The position numbers and the translations under genes were made by a program. From an uncultured Methanosarcinales archaeon (lineage in GTDB: Archaea > Nanobdellota > Nanobdellia > Woesearchaeales > GW2011-AR9), in contig CAZXEM010000001.1 in assembly GCA_964639875.1 (NCBI GenBank), positions 1-60,593 on the forward strand: 60,593 bases of DNA, in the 5' to 3' direction. How positions within the stretch are numbered: the first letter of the stretch is position 1; every line of letters starts with the position of its first letter. The notes beneath the pieces are model-generated. The model saw only the letters and a program-made list of their open reading frames with translations. It ran no database searches and was not told the DNA's origin. Shown piece by piece: positions 1 through 59,672 of the stretch.

Positions 1-437
1 ATGTACGGATCAGAATAATCTAAAGAAACACCCATCCGTTGAAAGTCAATAACCATTTGATCAGCCATTTCTAAACAAAAAGATGTACATTCTTTAATGA
101 ATTTTTTAAGACCAAATTTTTCAATATCTTCTTTTGTTTTTAAATTATGTTTGGCCATAACTTTATGGGCTGTAGGCAAACCATGAACGTCAAAACCTGC
201 CCGGTCCCAGACATTTAAGCCAAGAGAACGTTTATACCTTAAAGAAATATCTTTAAGAGATTTGTTCCATGCGGTTCCTAAATGAACCTTACCAGAAGTA
301 TACGGTGGACCGTCCAAATAATAATATTTCTTCCCGTTAATATTCTGTTTTCTAAGTTTTTCTAATATTTTCTGATTTTTCCAAAATTCTAATATTTCTG
401 GTTCAAGTTCTGAATGGTTATAAGTGTCACGTATCAT
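1..437 (-). CDS. ileS: Isoleucyl-tRNA synthetase, N-terminal fragment (gene continues beyond window start)
   Basis: Manual translation from ATG at 437: MIRDTYNHSELEPEILEFWKNQ...YYYLDGPPYTSGKVHLGTAWNKSLKD...DRAGFDVHGLPTAHKV. This is the class Ia HIGH-region architecture (PPY.sG..HlG... then GxDxHGLP) typical of IleRS. Not in the ORF track because it is truncated. Confidence 0.7.
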   Translation of the reverse strand, partial: MIRDTYNHSELEPEILEFWKNQKILEKLRKQNINGKKYYYLDGPPYTSGKVHLGTAWNKSLKDISLRYKRSLGLNVWDRAGFDVHGLPTAHKVMAKHNLKTKEDIEKFGLKKFIKECTSFCLEMADQMVIDFQRMGVSLDYSDPY

Positions 438-512: not shown

Positions 513-1808
513 TTACTCATCAACATAAGTTTTTAAACGTTGATTTCTGAAAGGATTACGAAGTCTTTCTAAAGCTCCAGCTTCAATTTGTCTAATTCTT
601 TCTCTGGTAACTTTGAAATCTTTTCCAACTTCTTCTAAAGTATAATCTCTATCTTCACCAATCCCAAATCTCATTCTAAGAATTTTTTCTTCTCTTGGCG
701 TTAATGTTCTTAAAACCCTGGATACGGCCATTACTAATCCATCATCTAAAGAATACTTTTCTGCATCAGGACTTTTTTCATCAACAATAAAATCAACCAT
801 TGTAGTATCTTCTTCCTCGCCAACAGGCATATTTAAAGAAATAGTATCTTTAGATATTTTTTTAACTTTTTTATAAGTAGCGAGAATTTTTTTAGAGTCC
901 TTATTTTCTTTAGCTTTATCAGTAAGACCACCATACAAATGTTCAGCGATTTCTTTATCAGTTCCTTGACGATTAAATTTATGCAAAAAATCATAATCTG
1001 CTTTACTCCATTTGTTTAGAAATTCAATAGTGTGTACAGGTAATCGAATAGTTCTACTGGTATCAAATATTGATCTTGTAACGCATTGTCTAATCCACCA
1101 AGTGGCATAAGTTGAAAATTTATATCCTTTTTTGTAATCAAATTTGTCAACTGCTTTCATTAATCCAATATTTCCTTCTTGGACAAGATCTTTTATACTT
1201 AATCCACCAATTCTATACTTTTTAGCAATACTGACAACTAAACGAAGGTTTTTTTCAACAAACTCATTTCTTAATTTTAATTCTAAATCTAAGTAACCTT
1301 TCATCAAACCTAATTTCTCGGCAGTAACTCGAGTTTTAATTCGATAATTCTCACTTTCTTTAAGATCAATATCTTCATGTAACCTCAACTCTTCATTTAA
1401 GTTCAAGTGGTAAGAACCCCTATACAAAATGTCAAACATGTTATCATAAATTAACGTTGTTCTTTTCTTAGTTTTTCTTTTACCAAGCAGTTCTTCTAAA
1501 TCAGAAAGAGCAATTTCATATAATTCACTACTATGACCATTACTTCGAACTTTATCAATTACTCCTCTTTCAGTTTCAAACAATTCCTGAAATTTTGAAA
1601 CCAGTAAAGGGTAACCAAACATATTTTTTAAACGATGAGTTCTAGTATGTTGACAAATACCATAAAACAACTCTTTATAACAATCTTCCAATCTTATAGC
1701 TAGATTTATTTCATCATCTCTATCCATAAGTTTTTCTTCACCAATTTTACTTAAATAAAAACTAAAAGTTCGATCATCTTCAAGACCTCTAACTTTTTTT
1801 CCCACCAT
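513..1808 (-). CDS. Bacterial-type RNA polymerase sigma-70 (RpoD-family) homologue
   Basis: All conserved sigma-70 regions are readable. Region 1.2: FYLSKIG...EINLAIRLE. Region 2: [12 protein letters not shown]..., [35 protein letters not shown]. Region 3: RTIRLPVH. Region 4: [14 protein letters not shown]...[22 protein letters not shown] spacer of about 110 aa separates regions 1.2 and 2. Confidence 0.85.
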
Positions 1809-1831
1809 CAGATATTATTTAAGAAAGCTAA

Positions 1832-1839
1832 TTTAAATA
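1832..1839 (-). promoter_or_regulatory. Archaeal TATA-box candidate for the sigma-70-like gene
   Basis: tttaaata lies about 27 nt upstream of the ATG at 1808. Many other first genes in the window show the same geometry, which implies a leaderless transcript. Confidence 0.45.
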
Positions 1840-1891
1840 TTTTGCCTAAAAATATACAGTATATAGATAGTAGAACAGATAGATTGAATCA

Positions 1892-2629
1892 TCAACTTTT
1901 CAACAAGATAACGTTACCACGACCTTTCTTAACTTTTTCAATCTGGCCTTTATGTTCAAGTTCAGTAAGAATTAAACTTACTTTTGCTTCAGAAATGTCC
2001 AACATTTCTTTCCTTAACGTTTTCTGGTTAATTCTCCCATCATGTTTCTTAATAATCTCCAAAACACGATCTAAATATCCAGGTTCTTGAGCAATTTCTT
2101 GTTTATGTTCTGCAACAGTTTTCTTCTGTTCAATTTTATGTTTCTTTCTAAACTTGCTTAACGAACCAAACTTTTTTCTCATCAATAAAAATCTGATAAA
2201 CAAAGCTATAATTATTAATCCACCCAAAATGTAGCGCCATAAAGCATAACTTCTTACTCCTTCATTATCATCTTCACTATCATCTTCAGTAAACAAGTTC
2301 TGTTCTGTATCTTGCCAAAGATCATCTTCGTCAGTAAAACTACCTAATAAAAAAATGTCAAAGATAGTTACCCCATCATTAGTTAATTCAATCTCTTCTG
2401 ATGAAGAAACTAAACCTTTAGTTGCAGTTAAAGTATAAGTACCACTTTTCAAGTCAAAAGTATAAGTCCCGTCTTTAGACAAATATTTCTGATTATCTAC
2501 TTCCACTAAAACGTCAGATTCTATCTCCAAATTAGAATTGTAAACACTTCCTTGAAGTGTTGCAGCCAAGGCTAAAGAAGAAAATAATAAAATGATTACA
2601 AATGTTAATAATAAATGTTTAAATCTCAT
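1892..2629 (-). CDS. Membrane-anchored winged-helix regulator (signal peptide, extracellular beta-rich domain, TM, cytoplasmic wHTH)
   Basis: N-terminal signal peptide LLFSSLALAATLQG; TM segment YILGGLIIIALFIRFLLM; C-terminal LEIIKKHDGRINQKTLRKEMLDISEAKVSLILTELEHKGQIEKVKKG resembles a MarR/ArsR-like wHTH. Confidence 0.5.
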   Translation of the reverse strand: MRFKHLLLTFVIILLFSSLALAATLQGSVYNSNLEIESDVLVEVDNQKYLSKDGTYTFDLKSGTYTLTATKGLVSSSEEIELTNDGVTIFDIFLLGSFTDEDDLWQDTEQNLFTEDDSEDDNEGVRSYALWRYILGGLIIIALFIRFLLMRKKFGSLSKFRKKHKIEQKKTVAEHKQEIAQEPGYLDRVLEIIKKHDGRINQKTLRKEMLDISEAKVSLILTELEHKGQIEKVKKGRGNVILLKS

Positions 2630-2661
2630 CTATAGTAGGAAAGTTTATTGGTTATAAAAAG

Positions 2662-3156
2662 TTAATCTTTTTTCTCAACAATTTTATTTAAAAACTTAAG
2701 TTGTGCTTCCCGATATATTTTCATGTTTTCCGGGAATGGTTTTTCTTTTTTAATAATCTTAATTGCTTTTGATATAGGCATTAATTTTTCTCCTTCCCAA
2801 TAATCTTCATATTGTTTATGATTTTCTTTGAATTCTTTAATTGTTCCAAAAAAGAAATGCATTTCTTCACCTTTATATTTCTTAAATCTCTTTTTTTGTT
2901 TTTCTGTTCTAATCCATTCTTCATCCCAAAGAAATTGAACCACCCCCAGGTCTTTAATAGGTAATTTAATAATAGCACCCGTTTCTTCAAGTGTTTCACG
3001 GACAACCGCAGAATCTGCATGTTCTCCTTTATCAATACCTCCACCTGGAAAAACCAGATATTTTTTACCTGTATTTTGAGCTAATATTTTCTTATCTTTA
3101 GTAATAAAATACCCTTCACAATTTCTTCGAAAGGGTAATTTGCTTCTATCCATCAA
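2662..3156 (-). CDS. NUDIX hydrolase
   Basis: Canonical Nudix box Gx5Ex7REUxEExGU: GGIDKGEHADSAVVRETLEETGA. Confidence 0.85.
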   Translation of the reverse strand: MMDRSKLPFRRNCEGYFITKDKKILAQNTGKKYLVFPGGGIDKGEHADSAVVRETLEETGAIIKLPIKDLGVVQFLWDEEWIRTEKQKKRFKKYKGEEMHFFFGTIKEFKENHKQYEDYWEGEKLMPISKAIKIIKKEKPFPENMKIYREAQLKFLNKIVEKKD

Positions 3157-4883: not shown

Positions 4884-7175
4884 TTACTTCTTTTTGGTTA
4901 ACCAAATCAAAACAACAACTGCAATTATTAACACAATTATTAAAGCGACCCATTTCCAAGGAAACTTACTTGCTACTTCTTCAGCTTCAGCAACAACTTC
5001 TTCTTCAACAGATGTGTCTTCTTCTGAAACAACTTCTTCTCCACCTTCAGCTGCTTCTTTAACTACTTCTTCTGCAGTTAAAGGTATTGCATCTACTTTC
5101 TCAGCAATTATAAAATAGCTAAATCCAGGCGTTTCTGCTGTATAATGGACGTATGTTCCGTCATCATTACCCATGGTGGTAGATAATTCAATCCATTCCC
5201 CATCTACGTATCGTTGTAAAGCAACATTAGCTTTACCAATCTTATTTTCAGCTAACCAAGTTTTAGTTACTTTAAACTTAATAGTAGGGTTAACTAAGAC
5301 ATCTTCTTTCAAAGCAGAACTTTTAGTGATCTGAATATTCTTGTAAACATCACCACTAAAAGTTTTAACTGAATTTGGGAAACTAGATTTCCTTTCAACT
5401 TTCATCCAAGCCCCGTACGTTTTCTCAGATACACCAAACTCAACAGAAGTTATACCTATTGCCCCGTTGTTAACTTCTAAAACAGTAGTAGTTCCTGGAC
5501 TAAGGGCTGCCCAAGTTTCTTGGGCATATTCTCCAGTTACTTGCGTACTTGAAGAACCACCCCCACCACTTGAAGATGAGCTACTACTTGCAGCTGTAAC
5601 TGTATAACTAGCAGTACCAGTGGCGGTAAGACCGACTGGATCCGTAGCAGTACAAGTTGTTGTCTTTGTTCCAGAGGTAGCAGTTGAATCCCCTGAATAA
5701 GCATAACTTAAAGTTCCACCCATAGCAACAGAATTGTCAGATGCAGAACAAGTACAAAGACGATCAGCTCCAATCGCTACTTCAGTACAACCAACCGCCA
5801 CGCTATATGGTGTCTCGTTATCTACATGTAATGCATAATAATCGTTGTCAACTGCAGTTATCACTGAACCATTATAGGTACAATTAACAGTCCAATTTGT
5901 AGAGACGTTTGTTACTAGACTCTGGTTGTTAGTAATGGTCATTACTGTGTTGTTTAAAGCAGTATTATTCACTCCATTAGCAATGTAATCTCCAGTAGAA
6001 TTTGTAACCCACAATTCACAAGAAACATTATTATCAGTTAAAGTAGTATTAACAAAACCACTTGCGTAACTAAAATTAAAAGAAACGTTTCCAGCGTCAG
6101 TACTATTAGTAAATGTATTGTTAAGAGGAGTTACAACTGTAACCGTAACAACATCAAGGTAAAACTTGTTAGCAAGAGTAGTACCAGAACTTCCAATATT
6201 ACTTGCTAAATCAGTACAATTAACATACCAGAGATGTGTTCCCGCACTTAAACTAGCGTTGGTAGTCCAAGTAGTTGCAGTATCATTTAAGACTGTACTA
6301 TTAACACCATAGCCAGTATCATCAATAAACAGTTCACAGGAAGCATTTGGTGAAAGACCATCTGTAAAACTGTATTCTAAATTAGGCGTAGTATCATCGG
6401 TCCAAGTCCAATTTTGTAATGTAGATGTATCATTTAAACTTACTGTAGGAGCAGTTAAATCAACATAAACCTCTACTGATTCCGCATTCTTATTGTTCAA
6501 AGTATCATTAGCAATCACTTTCAAAGTGTGTAGACCTTCTCCTAATTCCGCAGCAGTATAAGAAATGTTATAGTAATTATTACTCTTAGTTACTAAACCT
6601 TCAACGTAACCATATCCATCATAAGTATTATTACTCAAATTAACATCAGCTACACCAACACCAGAATCAGTAACAGTAACATTAATAATAAACTCTCCGC
6701 CAGAACCAATATAACTATTTGCAGTAGGGGTATTGATAGTTACAGAAGGTTTGGTATTATCAATCTGTACTCCTGTAATCGTACTATTTTCGATATTTAT
6801 ACTGGAACTGTTAGTAGCATTAACAGTTAAATTATAAGTATCATCAGCAAGAAGTATTGCAGTATCAACCGTAGTATTAAAAATAGTTTGGTTTGTAGTA
6901 GAATTCTCAAATGTTACGTTATAAACTAAAGAACCATCCGTCGCATTATAAAAAAAGAAGGTGACGTTAGTAGCGTTACTTTCGTAAGAATTGTTTAACG
7001 TTGCGTTGAGTACAATCTTACCAGAATAATTAGTATCTGCAGTTGGTTCAACTACACTAATACTTTGATCCGCAAATTCTGCAACTATCAAATAAGCAAA
7101 TATTGCAATCACACAAACTAAAAACATCATATAAAATAATTTTTTATCTTTCATCTTCTCAACCTCTTTTTTCAT
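4884..7175 (-). CDS. Large cell-surface (S-layer-like) glycoprotein candidate with C-terminal TM anchor
   Basis: Signal peptide followed by dozens of N-x-S/T sequons in Ig-like repeats. Ser/Gly linker SSSSSSSGGGGSSS, PGF-pre-PGF-like segment ending ...YTAETPGFSYFIIAEK, acidic spacer, then TM plus basic tail WKWVALIIVLIIAVVVLIWLTKKK. Confidence 0.6.
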   Translation of the reverse strand: MKKEVEKMKDKKLFYMMFLVCVIAIFAYLIVAEFADQSISVVEPTADTNYSGKIVLNATLNNSYESNATNVTFFFYNATDGSLVYNVTFENSTTNQTIFNTTVDTAILLADDTYNLTVNATNSSSINIENSTITGVQIDNTKPSVTINTPTANSYIGSGGEFIINVTVTDSGVGVADVNLSNNTYDGYGYVEGLVTKSNNYYNISYTAAELGEGLHTLKVIANDTLNNKNAESVEVYVDLTAPTVSLNDTSTLQNWTWTDDTTPNLEYSFTDGLSPNASCELFIDDTGYGVNSTVLNDTATTWTTNASLSAGTHLWYVNCTDLASNIGSSGTTLANKFYLDVVTVTVVTPLNNTFTNSTDAGNVSFNFSYASGFVNTTLTDNNVSCELWVTNSTGDYIANGVNNTALNNTVMTITNNQSLVTNVSTNWTVNCTYNGSVITAVDNDYYALHVDNETPYSVAVGCTEVAIGADRLCTCSASDNSVAMGGTLSYAYSGDSTATSGTKTTTCTATDPVGLTATGTASYTVTAASSSSSSSGGGGSSSTQVTGEYAQETWAALSPGTTTVLEVNNGAIGITSVEFGVSEKTYGAWMKVERKSSFPNSVKTFSGDVYKNIQITKSSALKEDVLVNPTIKFKVTKTWLAENKIGKANVALQRYVDGEWIELSTTMGNDDGTYVHYTAETPGFSYFIIAEKVDAIPLTAEEVVKEAAEGGEEVVSEEDTSVEEEVVAEAEEVASKFPWKWVALIIVLIIAVVVLIWLTKKK

Positions 7176-7270: not shown

Positions 7271-8122
7271 TTAAAATTTTAACAAAGTAAATAAATTAAA
7301 AAAATAATCAACAAAAATAATTGCTAAATAAGCAAGAAGAAAACTAGGTACGAAAGGTACACCTTCCTTAATTAAAACTTCAGTTAATTTTCCTTTACCT
7401 TCAAGTTTTCTTAATTTCCAGAGATCTTCAAGTTCTAAAGTTTTCTTTTCAAGCACTAATTTGTTTTTTATCTTCAAATCTTCTGCTAACCAATCACCTT
7501 CAGTAAGATTTTTTATCTTTACTTTATTGATAAAACAACTTTTCTCTACAGAATTAACAAAAATAAGTAAATAAAAGAAAACAAGTGGAAATAATATTAA
7601 AGGCCAAAGAAAAATGTAAAATATTGTTGGCACAATAAGAATTAAAGAAAGAACCGCTAAAGAAATGTGTAATTTCTTTTTTTTAGAAATACTTTTCTTA
7701 AAATTAAGCGAAAAAACTTTTCTTTTTTTAATCGCTATATAAACCATCCATAACAAACCAAAAATCGCCCCAAATAATAATAAGGCAATAAAGAAAAACA
7801 ATAAATCCCAACTGGAATCATTGAAAGGAAAAGTAATTCCAATCACTGCCCCTATCCCCATTAATAATTTACTATCACCACCACCCCACTGGCCCGTGTA
7901 ATAAAAAAGTAACGCAAACCCAAAACAAACAATAAATCCTAAAATCCCGCTAAGAATAATTTCCCAACCTAAGTTTATAGAAAAGATTGCCCTAATTCCG
8001 AACGCAGTAAAAATCAATCCATAATTTAACCAGTCAGGAACTTCTCTTGTCCGAATGTCTGAATAAGAAGCTACTAGAAGTGCAATAAGTGTGATTGTTA
8101 TTAAGATAACATCTAAAACCAT
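7271..8122 (-). CDS. Type IV prepilin / preflagellin (archaellin) peptidase, A24 family
   Basis: Polytopic membrane protein with both catalytic Asp motifs: SYSDIRTREVPDWL and WGGGDSKLLMGIG (GxGD). Confidence 0.8.
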   Translation of the reverse strand: MVLDVILITITLIALLVASYSDIRTREVPDWLNYGLIFTAFGIRAIFSINLGWEIILSGILGFIVCFGFALLFYYTGQWGGGDSKLLMGIGAVIGITFPFNDSSWDLLFFFIALLLFGAIFGLLWMVYIAIKKRKVFSLNFKKSISKKKKLHISLAVLSLILIVPTIFYIFLWPLILFPLVFFYLLIFVNSVEKSCFINKVKIKNLTEGDWLAEDLKIKNKLVLEKKTLELEDLWKLRKLEGKGKLTEVLIKEGVPFVPSFLLAYLAIIFVDYFFNLFTLLKF

Positions 8123-11771: not shown

Positions 11772-12962
11772 ATGACAACATATAACTTAAATCAAACAGG
11801 AATTGAATCCCTTATTAATTCACCTAGAAACATCAATCGCGTTCCTAATCCAACAGAAATTATTGAGGAGAAAACTTTTGAATCTGTGTTTGGACAACAT
11901 TGTGATGCTGGTTCATTTGGCACTATAACCCAAAGTCCTAATGGAGGTGTCCGTAAAGTTTTAGCATTTAGTCAGACGCCACTAGTTGATTTACCAGGAA
12001 TTCATCAAAATGTTAAAATATCTCATTTTAATGACAAAAATTACAAATTAAAAAAAGATGATTTGTCTTTAGAATTCACACTTTCAGAACCAAATCACTT
12101 ACATGTTGTTGGTGGCATTATGGAAGGAGTAATTTTACGTTCATTACAAGGTATTGAAGGAGTAGTTTCATACCGTGATCGAACATTTACTGTTATTGAT
12201 GGTTATATTTTTATGTCTACAGAAATGGACAAAGCTCCTGGAAAAACAACTTCTGAACTAGTACAGGAACAAATTACTTTAGAATCCGCATTAAATATTT
12301 CTTATAATGCAGCATTAACCCTTCAACAAGTTCACGATTATGACATTATTCACGGTGATATAACTCCCCAAAACATTATGTCAGATGGACAAAAAACAAC
12401 TATTACCGATTTTGGCAATTCACAAGTTGTTGGTTTAGAAATGTATTTTGGACTTTCCTATCGTGAAGCTAATGAAAAATCTTTTGTAGTAAAATTTGCA
12501 AACGATTTACCTAAAATTGGAACTCCAGCATATTTTGCCCCCGAAACATTTTTTGAAGGTACTTCAATTTCCGGCGATGTATTTTCAATGACCACCACTA
12601 CTCTTTATTTAACAACAGGAATGCTTGTTGCTCGTGAAATTGCAGAAGAAGGATGGAGTCCTAAAATTTATACTGCCACTAAAGAAAAAATGATCGAAAA
12701 TCATGTCCCAAAACCCGTTCGTCAAGCAATTTTATTTAACCTTGCCGTCAATCCAAATAAAAGAGATTTGGACATGCTTATTTCTGCTTTAGGTACTTCT
12801 TTAGGTGCAGAATTACCTGCCGGTGTTAGAGCTTATTCCTGTCCTCCCGTATATGCTCAAACACAATCTCCAATCGTTTCAATGGATTATCTTCAACAAT
12901 TTGGAGAAGCGAAAACAGAATTATTATCTGGTGAAGAACCTAAAAGTAAAATATTACAATAA
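11772..12962 (+). CDS. Eukaryotic-like Ser/Thr protein kinase
   Basis: Catalytic loop IIHGDITPQNIM, DFG (ITDFGNS) and APE-like GTPAYFAPE. TTTATAAA at 11714-11721 and GGGAG upstream of the ATG. Confidence 0.65.
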   Translation: MTTYNLNQTGIESLINSPRNINRVPNPTEIIEEKTFESVFGQHCDAGSFGTITQSPNGGVRKVLAFSQTPLVDLPGIHQNVKISHFNDKNYKLKKDDLSLEFTLSEPNHLHVVGGIMEGVILRSLQGIEGVVSYRDRTFTVIDGYIFMSTEMDKAPGKTTSELVQEQITLESALNISYNAALTLQQVHDYDIIHGDITPQNIMSDGQKTTITDFGNSQVVGLEMYFGLSYREANEKSFVVKFANDLPKIGTPAYFAPETFFEGTSISGDVFSMTTTTLYLTTGMLVAREIAEEGWSPKIYTATKEKMIENHVPKPVRQAILFNLAVNPNKRDLDMLISALGTSLGAELPAGVRAYSCPPVYAQTQSPIVSMDYLQQFGEAKTELLSGEEPKSKILQ

Positions 12963-27673: not shown

Positions 27674-28537
27674 ATGAACAGAAAATTAATCAAACAGGGT
27701 GGAACTGGACTTACATTATACGTTCCCAAGAAGTGGGTGGATCGATTAAAACTTAAACCAGGAGATGAAGTTTCAGTAGAAGAAGATGGAAACAAACTTA
27801 TTCTTAGTCCAGAGACTGTACTTAAAGAGAAAAAAATTAAACTTGATGCCACCAAACTTGATGAAAACTCTTTAAGAATTGCTTTATCTTTACTTTATTG
27901 GCAAGGTTACAATAAAATAGAAATAACAAACAAAGATAAATTTTCTTTTCTAGGTATTAACAAAGTAGTTGATAATTTTATTGGGATGGTAATTACAGAT
28001 CAATCTGATCATAAAGTAACCATTGAAAATACTATCAAAGAAAATGTTAAAAATGTGGATAAAATTATTAACAAATTATTCATTACTGTGAAATACATGT
28101 TTTCCTATTTGTTAAATAACTTTTCTAAAAATTTAGAGAATGATTTAGAAATTTTAGAACTTAGAAATTCAATCTTAAAACAAGGTAATTATTGTCAAAA
28201 ATTGATTTTTGTTAATAATTTTGGTAAAGAAAAAACTTATGAATATGTGGTCGTAGTTCTAATGTTAAAAAAGATTTCAGGTTCGTTATTTTTCTTATCA
28301 AAAAATAAACTACATTTAAAAAAGACAGAAGCATACTTAAAAAGATCTTTTGACTGGTTTGAAAATTTACACAATAGTTATCTTAAGAAAGATCCTACTA
28401 CTTCTTTAGAAATTTATGAATTATTAAACAAAGAAAAGATTAAACTCTACAAGGAGCAAAATGAGAACGTTATTTTTGGAGGAATGATTGAACATATGTT
28501 TAGTTTATCGCTAAGAGTTAGCAGCATTAATCTTTAG
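27674..28537 (+). CDS. AbrB/SpoVT-domain plus PhoU-like transcriptional regulator
   Basis: N-terminus KLIKQGGTGLTLYVPKKWVDRLKLKPGDEVSVEEDGNKLILSP is a SpoVT/AbrB swapped-hairpin motif. The helical C-terminal domain fits the archaeal AbrB-PhoU architecture. Confidence 0.65.
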   Translation: MNRKLIKQGGTGLTLYVPKKWVDRLKLKPGDEVSVEEDGNKLILSPETVLKEKKIKLDATKLDENSLRIALSLLYWQGYNKIEITNKDKFSFLGINKVVDNFIGMVITDQSDHKVTIENTIKENVKNVDKIINKLFITVKYMFSYLLNNFSKNLENDLEILELRNSILKQGNYCQKLIFVNNFGKEKTYEYVVVVLMLKKISGSLFFLSKNKLHLKKTEAYLKRSFDWFENLHNSYLKKDPTTSLEIYELLNKEKIKLYKEQNENVIFGGMIEHMFSLSLRVSSINL

Positions 28538-37410: not shown

Positions 37411-38460
37411 ATGAAAAAAAAGATCCCTCTTAAAACAACCAGAATTAAGGTAAAAAACCTTACTGTACATCAAAAAACAGCCAAATCCTGGAAGAAATCC
37501 ACTCAAAAATTTCCTGAAATTAGTAATATTGTCAAACTTTTCAAGGCCCATAATAATTTAAAAATATTAATTGATAAAAAAGATCCAACTTTTCTTAAAG
37601 GACAGTTGTTTAAAGGTAAAGTTCAAGGGGCAAGAATCAATATTCTTCCAGACGGAACTAAGATTGATAAAGCCTATTCTTTATTTGCCAAACATTTGAC
37701 GGTCCATGATCAAAGTTCTGCTGAACATTGGGACGTTTTGTTTCAAAATCCGGGTGGAACTTGGTCTTATTGTTATTCGTTAAAGAAAAAAGCAAAAAAT
37801 ACTATTGCAAAATACAAAAAGGTTCATCAATTTGATAAAATTTATCTGAACTTAATGAAAAACGTTTCTGCAGCATTAAAAAATAAAAACGATAATCTAG
37901 TTTTACCAATGTACACGTTATTAAGAACAAGAATGAGAATTGGTAACGAGATTTATTACAAGTTACATAATCATAAAGGGTTAACAACATTAAAGAAAAA
38001 AAACATTAAAATTAAAGGTAAAGAGATTGAATTCAAATTTGTGGGTAAAGATGGCGTCCCGCAAGATATTAAAAAGAAATTCCCTGAATTGTATCTTAAA
38101 CGTCTAAAAAAACATTTATCCACATTAAAAACAGACGATTTTGTTTTTGTTTCCAATACTGGTAAACCATTACCCGAGAAAGATTTCAAACTAGCTTTCA
38201 AAAAATATTGTGGGAAAGAATTTTATCCACACATAGTAAGATCACATTATGCAACAAGTAAAGTTAAAAAATTCATCCAAGGAAAAAATAGACTTGACAA
38301 AAAAGAAGTTAATGCATTATATTTAGAAATTGCTGGTTCTCTTGGTCATAAAAAATTCTCAAAAAAAGAACATCTTTGGAAAGAAAATTTTAGTGTTACT
38401 ATTGGACACTATATCGAACCAAAATTAGTTGAGAGAGTTAAAATCTTAGTTAACAAATAA
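37411..38460 (+). CDS. DNA topoisomerase IB (bacterial/poxvirus-like type)
   Basis: RMRIGNEIYYKLHNHKGLTTLKKKNI, EFKFVGKDGVPQD, HIVRSHYAT, and C-terminal LGHKK...TIGHYIEP (candidate catalytic Tyr) match the TopIB motif order as I remember it. Confidence 0.6.
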   Translation: MKKKIPLKTTRIKVKNLTVHQKTAKSWKKSTQKFPEISNIVKLFKAHNNLKILIDKKDPTFLKGQLFKGKVQGARINILPDGTKIDKAYSLFAKHLTVHDQSSAEHWDVLFQNPGGTWSYCYSLKKKAKNTIAKYKKVHQFDKIYLNLMKNVSAALKNKNDNLVLPMYTLLRTRMRIGNEIYYKLHNHKGLTTLKKKNIKIKGKEIEFKFVGKDGVPQDIKKKFPELYLKRLKKHLSTLKTDDFVFVSNTGKPLPEKDFKLAFKKYCGKEFYPHIVRSHYATSKVKKFIQGKNRLDKKEVNALYLEIAGSLGHKKFSKKEHLWKENFSVTIGHYIEPKLVERVKILVNK

Positions 38461-43722: not shown

Positions 43723-43811
43723 GGCCCCGTGGCTTAGCCTGGTAGAGCGCACGACTGATATGCTCAAGCTAAGAAATCGTGAGGTCCGGGGTTCAAATCC
43801 CCGCGGGGCCA
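43723..43811 (+). tRNA. tRNA-Ile(GAU) with a 15-nt canonical anticodon-loop intron (about 43761-43775)
   Basis: Acceptor GGCCCCG/CGGGGCC; D-arm GCTT/GAGC; anticodon stem CACGA/TCGTG with loop CTGATA[intron]A; T-arm CGGGG-TTCAAAT-CCCCG; discriminator A. Confidence 0.9.
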
Positions 43812-50136: not shown

Positions 50137-50643
50137 TTATAACATCCTCATTATCAAATCGTTAATTTTATCTCCTCGATTCCCAAGACCGCCACTAAGT
50201 TTAAATGGCATTTTTATCCCTTTCCGGCCGAAACCTTTACGAGGTGGACTAAGAGTAAAATATTTTTTATACTTTTTACCTTCATGTTCAAACAAATTAT
50301 ATTGATATTTCTTTTTTAAGTCAGTTTCTCTACCCTGGAACGGTTGACCCCTTTTACTTAATAATTCTTTAAAAGTGTCATCAGTAATTTCTCCCCAGGT
50401 AGTAAAATCTTTAACTTTTTTAATCATTCCCCGATTAACAGGATTATCAACAATAACTACACAATGATTTTTTCTGGATAAATTTAACATTAATAAAGTA
50501 TCTTTCACTTTCTTACTTAAACCTACCTTTCCTCTAACTAAGATCACTGCAATTTTTCCTGATTTTTTTGTTACAGGTGGAGTTTCTTTCTTAACTTCAA
50601 CATCTACTTGAGTACTTGGTCCAGTTTCAGTTTTTTCTACCAT
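50137..50643 (-). CDS. rpl30: 50S ribosomal protein L30 (uL30)
   Basis: KIAVILVRGKVGLSKKVKDTLLMLNLSRKNHCVVI and operon position. Confidence 0.9.
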   Translation of the reverse strand: MVEKTETGPSTQVDVEVKKETPPVTKKSGKIAVILVRGKVGLSKKVKDTLLMLNLSRKNHCVVIVDNPVNRGMIKKVKDFTTWGEITDDTFKELLSKRGQPFQGRETDLKKKYQYNLFEHEGKKYKKYFTLSPPRKGFGRKGIKMPFKLSGGLGNRGDKINDLIMRML

Positions 50644-51692
50644 TATTGTTTGTCCTCTACTACTTCTTGTTCTGGTTCTGATTGTGATTCTGTCTCTGCT
50701 GCTACAACTTCTTCTGTTGCTTCTTCTGTTGCTTCTTCAGCTTTAACTTCTTCAGCTACTTCTTCTTTAACTTTTTCTTCAGTTTTTTCTGCTCCTGCTT
50801 CTTCAACAGGAGTTTCAGAAGAAGGTTCTGCTTGCAAAAATTCTAATTCTTCTTGATCAGGTTCGTCATCAGCTTTTAATTTTCCGTCAACAATACCTAA
50901 GTTAATAATATCTTCTGGTTTAATTTTCATCTCAGAACTCTTTTTTAAAGCACTGATAAGAGCATGAAGTAAATTAATTTTAGTTTTTGTCTGGCCAGAA
51001 GTTTTACACCAAACGTCTTTTATTCCAGCTAATGCTAAAATTTTTCCACATTCACTTTCAATACAAAGACCTTTACCTTTAGGAGCAGGCATTAATTTAA
51101 TAGTAGCTGAACCACATTTTCCAGTGATAGTAAAAGGAATAGTGTGAGGTTGTTTACAATTACATTGCCAACTACCACAACCACGCCTAACCCTAAGTAA
51201 GTTTAATCTTGCTTTTCTTTTTGACTTTTCTCGGGCAGGAACAGTTTCTCCACTTTTTCCCATTGCAACGCCAACATAACCATTCTTATTACCAACAACA
51301 GAAAATGTTAAAAAGTGAATTTTGTTACCTTCTTTAGTCTTTTTTTGAGTTTGTCTAAAAATTCTTTTCTGGCCACCACCAAATTTACCTTTAGCCTGAC
51401 CAACTAGAAGTAATTCTTCTTCAAGGTTAGGCAAAAGAGTATCAACAATTTCTGATTCCAGAATTTTTTGTCCAGTATTAAAAATATCTTCAATTTCAGT
51501 AATAGTTCCATCTTTAACTTTTTTACCTAAAACTGTTTTCGGTATCCAAACTACTTCCGGCTCAACAAATTGACGAGGATTTCTATTAAATTTCCTATCT
51601 TTACCGCCACTAGTCCGATTATTTTTATTACCATTACTATTATTAGTATTATTATTCATTTTATTGTTTGAGTTTGATTTTTTTTCGACCAT
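50643..51692 (-). CDS. rps5: 30S ribosomal protein S5 (uS5) with Asn-rich N-terminal and acidic C-terminal extensions
   Basis: Core WIPKTVLGKKV...FSVVGNKNGYVGVAMGKS...GSATIKLMPAPKGKGL. Extensions NSNNKMNNNTNNSNGNKNN and EEAGAEKTEEKVKEEVAEEVKAEEATEE. Confidence 0.9.
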   Translation of the reverse strand: MVEKKSNSNNKMNNNTNNSNGNKNNRTSGGKDRKFNRNPRQFVEPEVVWIPKTVLGKKVKDGTITEIEDIFNTGQKILESEIVDTLLPNLEEELLLVGQAKGKFGGGQKRIFRQTQKKTKEGNKIHFLTFSVVGNKNGYVGVAMGKSGETVPAREKSKRKARLNLLRVRRGCGSWQCNCKQPHTIPFTITGKCGSATIKLMPAPKGKGLCIESECGKILALAGIKDVWCKTSGQTKTKINLLHALISALKKSSEMKIKPEDIINLGIVDGKLKADDEPDQEELEFLQAEPSSETPVEEAGAEKTEEKVKEEVAEEVKAEEATEEATEEVVAAETESQSEPEQEVVEDKQ

Positions 51693-57772: not shown

Positions 57773-57973
57773 TTATGAACTGTCCTCCTTCATTTTTAGT
57801 AAAGTTAGTATGCGAGCAATATTTTTTTTAATCAATCTTAACATTCCTGGATTTTCAGGATTAGAGCCAGTTGCTACTTGAACGTTCAGTTTTAAAAGTT
57901 CTTTTTTAAGTTCCACTAATCTTTTCTTTAAATCCTCTGTGGAAAGACCTTTCAATTCTTTAGTGTATTTCAT
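57773..57973 (-). CDS. rpl29: 50S ribosomal protein L29 (uL29)
   Basis: LSTEDLKKRLVELKKELLKLNVQVATG and operon position. Confidence 0.88.
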   Translation of the reverse strand: MKYTKELKGLSTEDLKKRLVELKKELLKLNVQVATGSNPENPGMLRLIKKNIARILTLLKMKEDSS

Positions 57974-58932
57974 TGCTCTTTAACCTCGTCTTTAGGTTGT
58001 TCAGATTCACTTGAATCGGCTGAAACTGGTTCCTCTTTATTTTCTTCTTGAGTTTCTTCTTTAGATTCTTTCTCAACAGGAACAGTCTCGGTTTCTTCAG
58101 TAATTTTTTGATCTTGAATTTCTTCTTTAACAGGAGCTGTTTCTTCTTGTTTTTCTTCTTTAACAACTTCTACTTTTTCAGTTACTTCTTCAACAGGAGC
58201 AGCTTCTTCTTTTTTAGCTTTCTTCTTAGTTGAAGTTTTTTTCTTACTGGTTTTTTTAGTAGCAGTTTCTTTCTTTTCTTCTTTTTTAGTTACTTCTTCT
58301 TCAGTTGATTTAATTTCTTCAATTACCTGTTCTGGTTCTTGAAGTATTTCAACATGATCAGGAAGTACTAAATCTGGTGGCATAATTGCAACTTTAATTC
58401 CAATAATTCCACTTTTTAGTAAAGCAACTGATTGAGCTCTCTTTACTCCAGAGATGGAAACATCGCCACATTTCTTTAAATAACCTTGATAAAATCGCCA
58501 GTTTCTTGCTCTTGAACTTGGTAGTTTTCCTGAAATAATAATTTCTACCCCTAATGCACCTGCACTAATAACGTTTGCAAGCATTTTGTGGCCAACACCT
58601 TTAAACCGAGCTGAACCAAACCGTTCTAATGAACCGGCAATCCTTTCTGCAACAATGTTAGCGTCAAGGAAAAAGTTTTTAACTTCATTAATTTCAATTT
58701 GAGGATTTTCAAGTTTGAACTCTTTCTTAAGTACTCTTGTTAATTCTTTAATGTTAGCCCCTTTTGAACCAACAATTAAACTAGGTCTACTAGTATCAAC
58801 AATTATCTTTTCACCTAAAGGAATTTTTTTAAGTTTAATTTTAGAGATTCCAACTTTGTTTAGTGTAGATTCAATATATTTCTTAATGTAAAACTCTTTA
58901 GTTTTCTGGGCAATAAATTTTCTTTCCATCAT
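57970..58932 (-). CDS. rps3: 30S ribosomal protein S3 (uS3) with a K/E/T-rich C-terminal extension of about 100 aa
   Basis: KH-domain core (IVGSKGANIKELT...), FKGVGHKMLANV..., then KKEEKKETATKKTSKKKTSTKKKAKKEEAAPVEE... Confidence 0.92.
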   Translation of the reverse strand: MMERKFIAQKTKEFYIKKYIESTLNKVGISKIKLKKIPLGEKIIVDTSRPSLIVGSKGANIKELTRVLKKEFKLENPQIEINEVKNFFLDANIVAERIAGSLERFGSARFKGVGHKMLANVISAGALGVEIIISGKLPSSRARNWRFYQGYLKKCGDVSISGVKRAQSVALLKSGIIGIKVAIMPPDLVLPDHVEILQEPEQVIEEIKSTEEEVTKKEEKKETATKKTSKKKTSTKKKAKKEEAAPVEEVTEKVEVVKEEKQEETAPVKEEIQDQKITEETETVPVEKESKEETQEENKEEPVSADSSESEQPKDEVKEQ

Positions 58933-59672
58933 TTTACTTTATCACCTGCATTATTTTCGTTAGGATTATTAGGATTAACATCTTCTTTAGCTTCTTCAAC
59001 TTTTTCTTCTTCTTTCTTTTCTTCTTTAACAGGTTCTTCAGTTTTTACTTCTTTAACTTCAGGTTTAGCTTCTTCTTTAACTTCTTCAGCTTTTTGTTCT
59101 TCCACTTTAGGTTCCGCAGGCTTGTCCGAGGATTCAGAATCTTTTGATTCTGTAACTTCTTTAACTACAGGCTTATTAACCTTTTCTTCTTCTTTAACTT
59201 CAGTTGATTTTTTTACACTTTTCTTTTTATCTTTCTTTTCTTTAACTGCCATCTCTTTAACTTCAATTTCAAGATGAGACCTTTTTGTACCAGTCCGTCT
59301 TCTACCGCCAGTAAGAGGAATTGAAGCTCTATTAGCAATCAATTTAGTAATTTTTAAATTTGAACTGTTCAAACCTTTATAATGAGCATTTGCTTCAACT
59401 GAATTAATTAATTGTAAAAAGCATTTAGCAGCTTTTTGAGGGAACTTACCTGCAGACATACCAGCTTTATGACCAGTGTCACGGATAAATCTTTTAAACG
59501 GAACTGCCCTTTTTAATGAAATAACTTCTTCTAACAAGCCCTTAACATGAGCGGTATTTTTATAACGTAAAAAATTACCAATTTCAATACAATCCTTAGT
59601 TGATATTGCTAAATTTTTAGCACTAGCAGTAGCAAAATGTTCAGGATTTTTTGTTTTTTTGATTTCAGCCAT
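58929..59672 (-). CDS. rpl22: 50S ribosomal protein L22 (uL22) with a K/E-rich C-terminal extension of about 95 aa
   Basis: SAKNLAISTKDCIEIGNFLRYK...RRRTGTKRSHLEIEV, then KEKKDKKKSVKK...EEKKEEEKVEEAKED. Confidence 0.92.
   Translation of the reverse strand: MAEIKKTKNPEHFATASAKNLAISTKDCIEIGNFLRYKNTAHVKGLLEEVISLKRAVPFKRFIRDTGHKAGMSAGKFPQKAAKCFLQLINSVEANAHYKGLNSSNLKITKLIANRASIPLTGGRRRTGTKRSHLEIEVKEMAVKEKKDKKKSVKKSTEVKEEEKVNKPVVKEVTESKDSESSDKPAEPKVEEQKAEEVKEEAKPEVKEVKTEEPVKEEKKEEEKVEEAKEDVNPNNPNENNAGDKVK

Follow-up and report, generated by a model that had tools for sequence, protein, structure and literature searches.

What can a bacterial-type sigma factor do in an archaeon? Archaeal transcription uses TBP, TFB and TFE, sigma factors require the bacterial core enzyme, and this distinction is the textbook divide between bacterial and archaeal/eukaryotic transcription initiation. 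The question is raised by a sigma-70 family gene located near one end of a stretch of DNA of 60,593 nucleotides, referred to here as the window. A sigma factor kept by selection in an archaeon with archaeal machinery could have been refitted to the archaeal polymerase, could act as a free DNA-binding or DNA-melting regulator, or could serve the manipulation of bacterial polymerases by DPANN archaea, and each of these three outcomes would be a notable result. Such a gene is surprising to a transcription specialist, though this is no first report, and the mechanism put forward below is one that we infer. Castelle et al. (2021; PMC8204110) found sigma-70 genes (fam00359) to be prevalent in Woesearchaeota, ruled out mis-binning, detected no anti-sigma factors, left open how the genes are controlled and put forward bacterial hosts as a speculation. 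An earlier sequence-only reading of this DNA had suggested that the occurrence may not be new, since sigma-like genes had been remarked on in some DPANN metagenome bins, and the paper bears this out. Since NCBI also labels one family member (MBT6774957.1) as 'sigma-70 family RNA polymerase sigma factor [Candidatus Woesearchaeota archaeon]', the occurrence itself was already known. Set side by side by the description in that paper, fam00359 and the present gene represent the same phenomenon in the same phylum: in both cases a sigma-70 protein is encoded on a verified Woesearchaeota/DPANN contig. The paper treats occurrence only, without pairing to a DUF7343 protein, tandem paralogues, promoter structure or residue-retention pattern. 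What is new relative to the literature searched is a subfamily defined by the loss of region 1.1, a common insert and a common N-terminal module, together with its tandem expansion, the constant presence of DUF7343 beside it, its promoter map and its pattern of residue retention. The value beyond the known occurrence thus lies in a defined small family, in a candidate for the control partner that was missing in Castelle et al., in the promoter map and in the residue-level pattern; with these in hand, the question of function becomes reducible to a few direct binding experiments.

The contig that carries the sigma gene is unmistakably archaeal. The window contains an S10/spc ribosomal operon of archaeal type (L19e, L32e, S4e, archaeal L24, SecY with the Sec61 plug) together with genes for aEF-1alpha, FttA/aCPSF1, the archaeal CCA-adding enzyme, L31e, S19e and a subunit of the proteasome, and its tRNA-Ile(GAU) gene is interrupted by a 16-nt intron. 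At NCBI, the name 'Candidatus Woesearchaeota archaeon' is given to proteins that match the window's aEF-1alpha and aCPSF1 at 90% identity or more; the label 'Methanosarcinales archaeon' attached to L005 was judged unreliable, as the GC content is 31-33% and the synteny is the same as in Woesearchaeota contigs. The position of the sigma gene, 0.5-1.8 kb from the window edge, could suggest an assembly chimera or bacterial contamination, a danger that the sequence-only reading had itself named. However, 37 blocks of the sequence collection index the identical 431-aa protein, and all 23 contigs that were read, up to the 0.2-1 Mb class, have the same neighbours on both sides, in the order DUF7343 gene, sigma gene, isoleucyl-tRNA synthetase (IleRS) gene and, further on, a ThrRS gene with archaea-specific editing domain (the longest contig on the cluster records of the protein is of 221 kb). 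Orthologues 80-85% identical from other samples keep the DUF7343 neighbour upstream in syntenic loci, and the position of the IleRS gene places housekeeping genes on both flanks of the sigma gene (Table 1). Composition points in the same direction. As the earlier reading held, the gene is as AT-rich as its neighbours, with GC (29.7%) and GC3 (16.2%) within the range of 31 other window genes and a codon usage (RSCU) that correlates with that of the neighbours at r = 0.91; judged by these native values, it is fully ameliorated. Against this background the probability of a chimera or contaminant is negligible. The gene content bears equally on the proposal that the genome also encodes a bacterial-type core RNA polymerase (RNAP), which the sigma factor would serve. 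No bacterial transcription gene was found among the ~70 ORFs of the 60-kb window, and Castelle et al. (PMC8204110) describe the usual archaeal set of TBP, TFB and TFE without mention of a bacterial core, so that we consider this explanation very improbable.

Table 1. Features of the sigma locus (nucleotide positions in the window) and layout of the sigma protein (amino acid positions).
Feature	Position	Strand	Remarks
Isoleucyl-tRNA synthetase gene, 5' part	1..437	(-)	cut by window edge
Sigma-70 family gene	513..1808	(-)	ATG start, 431 aa
Sigma core promoter	1831..1846	(-)	TATA TTTAAAT 1831-1837; purine-rich BRE-like GGCAAAATA 1838-1846
Conserved block 5' of sigma promoter	1847..1884	(-)	ATCTATCTGTTCTACTATCTATATACTGTATATTTTTA; candidate operator, function suggested by conservation
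DUF7343 partner gene	1892..2629	(-)	245 aa, sigma next in every informative locus
TATA box of DUF7343 gene	2653..2660	(-)	TTTTTATA; ends 23 nt before ATG
NUDIX hydrolase gene	2662..3156	(-)	common but not universal neighbour upstream of the DUF7343-sigma pair
Sigma protein, probable region 1.2	~aa 13-45		preceded by a short N-tail
Sigma protein, lineage-specific helical region	~aa 46-177
Sigma protein, regions 2.1-2.4	aa 178-252
Sigma protein, region 3.0	aa 253-292
Sigma protein, family-specific insert	~aa 293-306		14 aa
Sigma protein, regions 3.1-3.2	aa 307-355
Sigma protein, regions 4.1-4.2	aa 356-431

As to the kind of sigma factor encoded, the sequence-only reading had spoken of a full-length RpoD-like protein, and the assignment to the sigma-70 family stands. 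In Pfam, the product matches Sigma70_r2 (PF04542, 76.3 bits against a cutoff of 24) and Sigma70_r4 (PF04545, 61.7 bits against 24.1), that is, it has the sigma2 domain and the region 4.2 helix-turn-helix of sigma4; the match to Sigma70_r3 (PF04539, 40.4 bits against 25.3) is partial, covering profile positions 36-76, and the 14-aa insert lies upstream of it. The core-binding and -10/-35 recognition motifs quoted in that reading are present in the 431-aa product, in which we found YATWWIRQ and GNIGLM (sigma2) and TRERIRQIE (region 4.2). Region 1.2 scores 17.2 bits with PF00140, for which the cutoff is 22, aligns pairwise to RpoD region 1.2 with E = 3e-4, and is matched by PF00140 in the sigma paralogues of another locus of the family (L007). 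The attribute 'full-length' is overstated, because region 1.1 is missing, a short lineage-specific segment lies between regions 1.2 and 2.1, and the RpoD score is below cutoff. No match to the region 1.1 profile PF03979, which is present in every bacterial top match, was obtained with the sigma protein, where ~12 residues precede region 1.2; the best NCBIfam model is RpoD, with NF004208 at 362 bits (equivalog cutoff 555) and TIGR02393 at 298 (cutoff 354), below all NCBIfam RpoD equivalog cutoffs. By its profile matches, then, the protein is a group-1-derived sigma factor without region 1.1. The AF2 model is all-helical, with pLDDT of 70-87 in sigma2, sigma3 and sigma4, and sigma70 chains of holoenzyme structures rank first both in Foldseek and in the comparison with PDB sequences; the N-terminal module is given no fold because pLDDT is only 34-60 there. 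In the numbering of E. coli sigma70, obtained from PDB alignment offsets (aa 178-431 correspond to residues 374-613), the window copy keeps residues of core binding (D403, Q406, E407, N409, M413), of -10 capture and melting (Y425, Y430, W433, W434), of -10 read-out (Q437, T440, R441), of extended -10 recognition (H455, E458) and of -35 read-out (R584, E585, R586, R588, Q589), and has K at L402.

The closest RpoD/SigA proteins, those of Myxococcota and Bdellovibrionota, resemble the window sigma in regions 2-4 and probably in region 1.2, with 52-57% identity over aa 178-431. They differ from it in that the window protein lacks region 1.1, has an unrelated, short stretch linking 1.2 to 2.1, carries the 14-aa insert in region 3 and has lost L402, in that it is encoded by an archaeon, with BRE/TATA transcription and no bacterial core seen in the 60-kb window, and in that its family has evolved far faster. 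Only two close homologues were found among 5.8 billion clusters; beyond them, identity over regions 2-4 is at most 57% and the matches are bacterial RpoDs, those of Myxococcota and Bdellovibrionota ranking first. When the N-terminal 181 aa were searched exhaustively with HMMER, only four cluster representatives in 1.84 billion were retrieved; a word-index search with the N-terminal 183 aa returned no match and missed even an 85% identical relative, which was taken as a limit of the index. The family members share the N-terminal module and a region 3 insert of 14-15 aa that is absent from all sampled bacterial RpoDs. They are monophyletic in 200 of 200 neighbor-joining bootstraps, in a tree open to long-branch or compositional attraction; the shared insert, the N-terminal module and the synteny support a single origin independently. 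In regions 2-4, the sampled bacterial RpoDs are 82% identical to one another, whereas the archaeal family is 44-57% identical to them and its sub-branches share 35-54%, from which it follows that this family evolves much faster than a primary sigma factor. Sequence comparison thus supports an origin by horizontal transfer of a bacterial group-1-like rpoD, long domesticated, and the acquisition and domestication suggested by the sequence-only reading agree with the amelioration, the archaeal promoter, the purifying selection and the diversification of the family. No donor is assigned, because BLASTP alignments with Myxococcota RpoDs extend into aa 69-177 of the window protein only at very low identity; for the same reason, the idea that its N-terminal part is homologous to the RpoD non-conserved region of Myxococcota was dropped. 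A viral origin was also rejected, as a scan of viral contigs gave only generic RpoDs of at most 53% identity, mainly in regions 2-4, which is weak negative evidence since the scan patterns were drawn from conserved motifs.

Fast evolution could also betray a non-functional relic, a decaying pseudogene of a past transfer. The gap between 44-57% and 82% identity would fit such a decay, as would one member (P0121) in which region 4.2 is truncated or garbled. Nevertheless, the ORFs are intact in all lineages, the promoter is perfectly conserved and duplicates are retained. Compared with two orthologues by the Nei-Gojobori method, the sigma gene has dN/dS of 0.15-0.20 overall at dS of 0.46-0.77, a value at which it is no pseudogene, while region 2 alone gives 0.05-0.07 and the N-terminal part 0.17-0.31. 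As estimated from these ratios, the gene is under purifying selection that is strongest in region 2. A relic is highly implausible.

The promoter places the gene in the same archaeal context. The TATA box that had been proposed from the sequence is the heptamer TTTAAAT listed in Table 1, in line with the native TATA cluster of the window. Among 46 window genes with an upstream spacer of at least 45 nt, the starts of TATA-like motifs concentrate at -28 to -33 from the ATG (12 of 27 matches, binomial P = 1.2e-5), and the remaining surveyed genes have GGAGG-type leaders. The TATA box of the sigma gene ends 22 nt 5' of the ATG, which implies a leaderless mRNA, and its spacing is maintained in all lineages, as expected of an archaeal leaderless BRE/TATA promoter with TATA about 26-30 nt upstream and a position conserved in orthologues. 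On this evidence, the sigma gene is a member of the native leaderless class of the window. The BRE/TATA block is identical at 16 of 16 positions in four orthologous loci, the next 22 nt to the ATG at only 64-68%, and the 45 nt upstream of the block (-39 to -83) retain 78-80% identity against a dS of 0.46-0.77 in the coding region. In all lineages, a separate TTTTTATA or TTTAAAT box precedes the ATG of every DUF7343 gene and every sigma paralogue by 21-24 nt, with the lone exception of a 9-nt junction that carries a GGAG leader. A published Woesearchaeota metatranscriptome study contains no data on the sigma genes.

The second component of the locus is the gene of the DUF7343 protein. In this protein, a signal/TM helix and a variable, CarboxypepD_reg-like extracellular domain are followed by a TM helix, a long helix on the cytoplasmic side and, at the C-terminus, a winged helix; the cytoplasmic half of the protein is nearly invariant. 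In Foldseek, the winged helix resembles MarR/ArsR/BlaI-type DNA-binding domains with weak E-values, as expected for 60 residues, and of the single-sequence model only the TM helix and the winged helix are reliable; a PDB profile search with the protein gave no match. Metagenomic loci were fetched through the DUF7343 protein, independently of sigma. A sigma gene follows 30-70 nt after DUF7343 in all eight new loci that include downstream DNA, as in all earlier loci, and the pairing persists at 59% DUF7343 identity and ~32% sigma identity, between different flanks. It could nonetheless reflect inherited synteny in a narrow clade instead of functional coupling. The number of sigma genes varies from one to three tandem copies: in the Woesearchaeota MAG GCA_018670095.1, NUDIX and DUF7343 genes are followed by three tandem paralogues (476, 494 and 488 aa), and other contigs have two or three copies. 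Between the window and this MAG, identity is 82% for NUDIX, 71% for DUF7343 and 37-42% for the sigmas, and between the window and the L012 lineage it is 81%, 65% and 84%, respectively, which means that close relatives hold very different sigma sets at one locus. The pairing with DUF7343 and this tandem expansion, the most telling traits of the family, had escaped the sequence-only reading. Directly downstream of sigma, the L012-L014 lineage has an integrase/Bro-N element with variable restriction-modification cargo, in the position occupied by IleRS in the window.

Several known systems resemble this arrangement in part. As in pairs of an ECF sigma factor and a transmembrane anti-sigma factor, the sigma gene is co-directional with the adjacent gene of a single-pass membrane protein that has extracytoplasmic and cytoplasmic domains. 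The window sigma, in contrast to the two-domain ECF factors, is group-1-derived, has sigma3 and probably region 1.2, and finds its best models in RpoD. The membrane protein also differs from an ECF anti-sigma factor: it is encoded upstream of sigma, each gene has its own promoter, and the cytoplasmic part, by its predicted fold, is a MarR/ArsR-type winged helix and not an anti-sigma domain. A second likeness is to MzaA, the sigma factor of the Mza anti-phage system, whose NCBIfam model aligns with aa 12-431 at 316 bits, including region 1.2 and the short linker. Membership in this system was rejected, since the cutoff of that model is 800 and the PADLOC match covers only the sigma2-4 core (aa 181-430); with PADLOC, neither Mza partner genes (MzaB-E) nor defence matches were found among the sigma neighbours. 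Plant nuclear SIG genes, which serve the plastid RNAP, and phage sigmas offer a third model, in which a sigma factor from one genetic system could serve the bacterial-type polymerase of another. In those cases the target core is known, whereas for the window sigma neither such a core nor a delivery route is known.

This last model underlies the view that the protein is passed to, or works inside, a bacterial host or partner whose RNA polymerase it redirects; a factor aimed at a bacterial partner's polymerase was one of the two possibilities named in the sequence-only reading. It draws strength from the window copy, in which almost none of the canonical residues for core binding and for -10, extended -10 and -35 recognition has been lost, from the paralogue expansion and fast divergence in close relatives, which resemble those of host-interaction genes, from the absence of visible targets in the archaeon's own DNA within the 60-kb window, and from the bacterial hosts for DPANN raised by Castelle et al. 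(PMC8204110). The family as a whole, represented by 10 non-redundant members, gives a different picture. Invariant in these members are N383, L384, L386, V387, N409, F419, K426, Y430, W433, W434 and Q437, and R584, E585, R586, R588 and Q589 are kept in all members having region 4.2. Among the positions that are 100% invariant in the sampled bacterial RpoDs, L402 is changed in all members to K, E, G or D, Q406 is S in half of them, H455 and E458 are lost in half, the sigma finger (510-522) has drifted to a top-residue frequency of 0.3-0.6 at most positions, and K593, R596 and H600 have drifted as well. The most divergent branch (L099, L100) also has E407A, W434Q and Q437A/N, and L099 shows E585A and R588Q. 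The loss of L402 in all members and of Q406, E407 and W434 in some, together with the poorly conserved finger, speaks against use of a bacterial core. Moreover, the sigma protein has no signal peptide or other export signal and no secretion-associated neighbour, dN/dS indicates purifying and not diversifying selection, and no bacterial host is known for Woesearchaeota. A role of this kind on a foreign polymerase is therefore quite unlikely.

The retention of DNA-handling residues across the family, combined with the drift of several bacterial-core contacts, fits an interface that would have been refitted to a non-bacterial partner. Drift alone is no proof of such a partner, because bacterial alternative sigmas also vary at Q406, at M413 and in the finger. 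The three tandem paralogues keep regions 2.1-2.3 and the region 4.2 helix and differ in 2.4, 3.0 and 3.2, the same pattern of kept and differing parts as in alternative sigmas that share one polymerase.

We tentatively favour, as a possibility that falls short of probable, a domesticated, archaeally expressed, signal-controlled and sequence-specific factor derived from sigma-70. It would act on the genome of the archaeon itself, probably by way of the RNAP clamp coiled-coil. According to this proposal, a single old transfer of a bacterial group-1-type rpoD would have given rise to a Woesearchaeota-specific family, in which region 1.1 was presumably lost, the non-conserved region shortened and the region 3 insert gained. 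The sigma gene would then have become fixed in a two-gene module, in which one to three sigma copies come after the gene of a membrane-anchored winged-helix protein of the DUF7343 type. DNA might be bound by sigma4, through its intact -35-type helix, and by sigma2, through its intact -10 capture and melting residues, and the remodelled region 2.2 might dock on the RNAP clamp coiled-coil. The DUF7343 protein could exert control in two ways, either by a winged helix that regulates the conserved sigma promoter or by holding sigma at the membrane. Sigma, TFE and Spt5/NusG share the clamp coiled-coil as their docking site, which all domains have conserved (PMC3382729). A contact of this kind with the archaeal RNAP is the most economical mechanism, since the part of sigma2 that opens strands and binds the clamp is under the tightest constraint and the clamp coiled-coil is universal. 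Against the proposal, no sigma factor is known to bind archaeal RNAP, archaeal RNAP is not known to have the bacterial-type flap-tip helix for sigma4, and no enrichment of sigma-70-type -35/-10 pairs is seen upstream of genes in the 60-kb window. A more specific version is hybrid initiation, in which sigma on the archaeal RNAP clamp would open or select promoters together with TBP/TFB, the paralogues would confer different specificities and the membrane winged-helix sensor would be in control. If true, a sigma factor would for the first time be seen to work with a cellular polymerase that is not bacterial; we regard this version as somewhat doubtful.

Docking may also be dispensable. Region 1.1 is the autoinhibitory element of group-1 sigmas, and without it free sigma binds DNA, an autoinhibition that Dombroski and co-workers reportedly described in 1992-93. 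Lacking region 1.1, the window protein should bind DNA on its own, so that it could be a regulator independent of RNAP which binds duplex -35-like or -10-like (TATA-like) DNA through sigma4 and sigma2-3 and represses or activates archaeal promoters. The 4.2 recognition helix, conserved in nearly all members, the drift of the bacterial-core contact positions and the fact that promoter occlusion is typical for archaeal regulators are all consistent with it. The tightest constraint, however, falls on regions 2.1-2.3, including Y430 and W433, which serve strand opening and clamp binding and not duplex binding, and sigma-70-type sites are not enriched in the window, all of which makes such a regulator unlikely. 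When pairs of sigma-70-type -35/-10 sites were counted in the 60-kb window, upstream of genes and in the correct orientation, there were 14 against 15.4 +/- 4.1 in shuffles, and one pair at 10/12 or better against 2.6; with no enrichment, no regulon is visible in 60 kb. As a separate observation, the first 20 kb show a slight excess of -35/-10 pairs (103 against 82 +/- 7.7), located mostly within genes.

Organisms closely related to that of the window carry a DUF7343 gene, which encodes a membrane-anchored winged-helix protein, immediately followed by two or three tandem sigma-70 paralogues, as seen in GCA_018670095.1 (JABHRR010000076.1; L007:2557-6994) and, in the same arrangement, at five other loci carrying the sigma module (L008, L009, L095, L097 and L102). 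The NUDIX protein of these carriers shares 82% identity with that of the window, yet their sigmas are merely 37-42% identical to the window's.

Upstream of the sigma core promoter, a block with imperfect repeats is conserved far beyond the level of synonymous sites. This block may be an operator, perhaps one recognised by the neighbouring winged-helix protein.

On the other side of the gene, in the lineage with the 85%-identity sigma (L012-L014), a tyrosine integrase and a Bro-N gene lie directly 3' of sigma, and the cargo that follows varies by sample, including an EcoO109I-type restriction enzyme accompanied by a Dcm methylase, type I restriction-modification systems, and a UvrD/PD-(D/E)XK helicase-nuclease. 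A tRNA gene was sought in L012 and none was found. The region looks like an integration hot-spot or a defence island.

The family member P0121 (406 aa) is 53% identical to the window's sigma, and its region 4.2 is garbled and truncated at the C-terminal end. A frameshift could account for this, as could a contig end or a genuine loss of sigma4. The orthologous locus L005:6266-9437 (CAZQLW010000024.1) belongs to a GTDB representative labelled 'uncultured Methanosarcinales archaeon', a label or binning that is doubtful because this representative has a GC content of 31-33% and the synteny found in Woesearchaeota. The IleRS gene there spans two overlapping ORFs, a split caused by a frameshift or an assembly error.

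Features of the window and of loci L012-L014
Feature	Location	Strand	Remark
Conserved block, imperfect repeats (CTATCT ... CTATCTATA)	window 1847-1884	-	upstream of sigma BRE/TATA
Big_7 surface protein, 763 aa	window 4884-7175		near sigma module
Prepilin peptidase	window 7271-8122		near sigma module
Eukaryotic-type Ser/Thr protein kinase	window 11772-12962	+	near sigma module
Eukaryotic-type Ser/Thr protein kinase	L012:1-2528		near sigma module
N-terminal MazE/AbrB-type domain protein	window 27674-28537	+	
N-terminal MazE/AbrB-type domain protein	L012:2499-3398		~7 kb from sigma locus
Integrase, Bro-N, cargo	L012:11681-20272, L013:11681-21025, L014:9629-19166		
Topoisomerase IB catalytic core (PF01028), eukaryotic-type	window 37411-38460	+	
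tRNA-Ile(GAU), archaeal-type intron	window 43723-43811	+	ARAGORN call reread by Rfam alignment
Ribosomal protein S5, 349 aa	window 50643-51692	-	far above usual length
Ribosomal protein S3, 320 aa	window 57970-58932	-	far above usual length
Ribosomal protein L22, 247 aa	window 58929-59672	-	far above usual length

Kinase genes located close to the sigma module occur in two lineages, those of the window and of L012, and both also encode the MazE/AbrB-type-domain protein (287-299 aa).

Elsewhere in the window, the Pfam domains of S5, S3 and L22 span only the central part of each protein, which therefore carries long terminal extensions. ARAGORN reported an 89-nt 'tRNA-His (anticodon ATG)', a call that we rejected, as the Rfam alignment resolved it into a standard tRNA plus a 16-nt insertion; since the loop reads CUGAUA and the insertion sits after the anticodon loop, the gene is a tRNA-Ile(GAU) with an archaeal-type intron.
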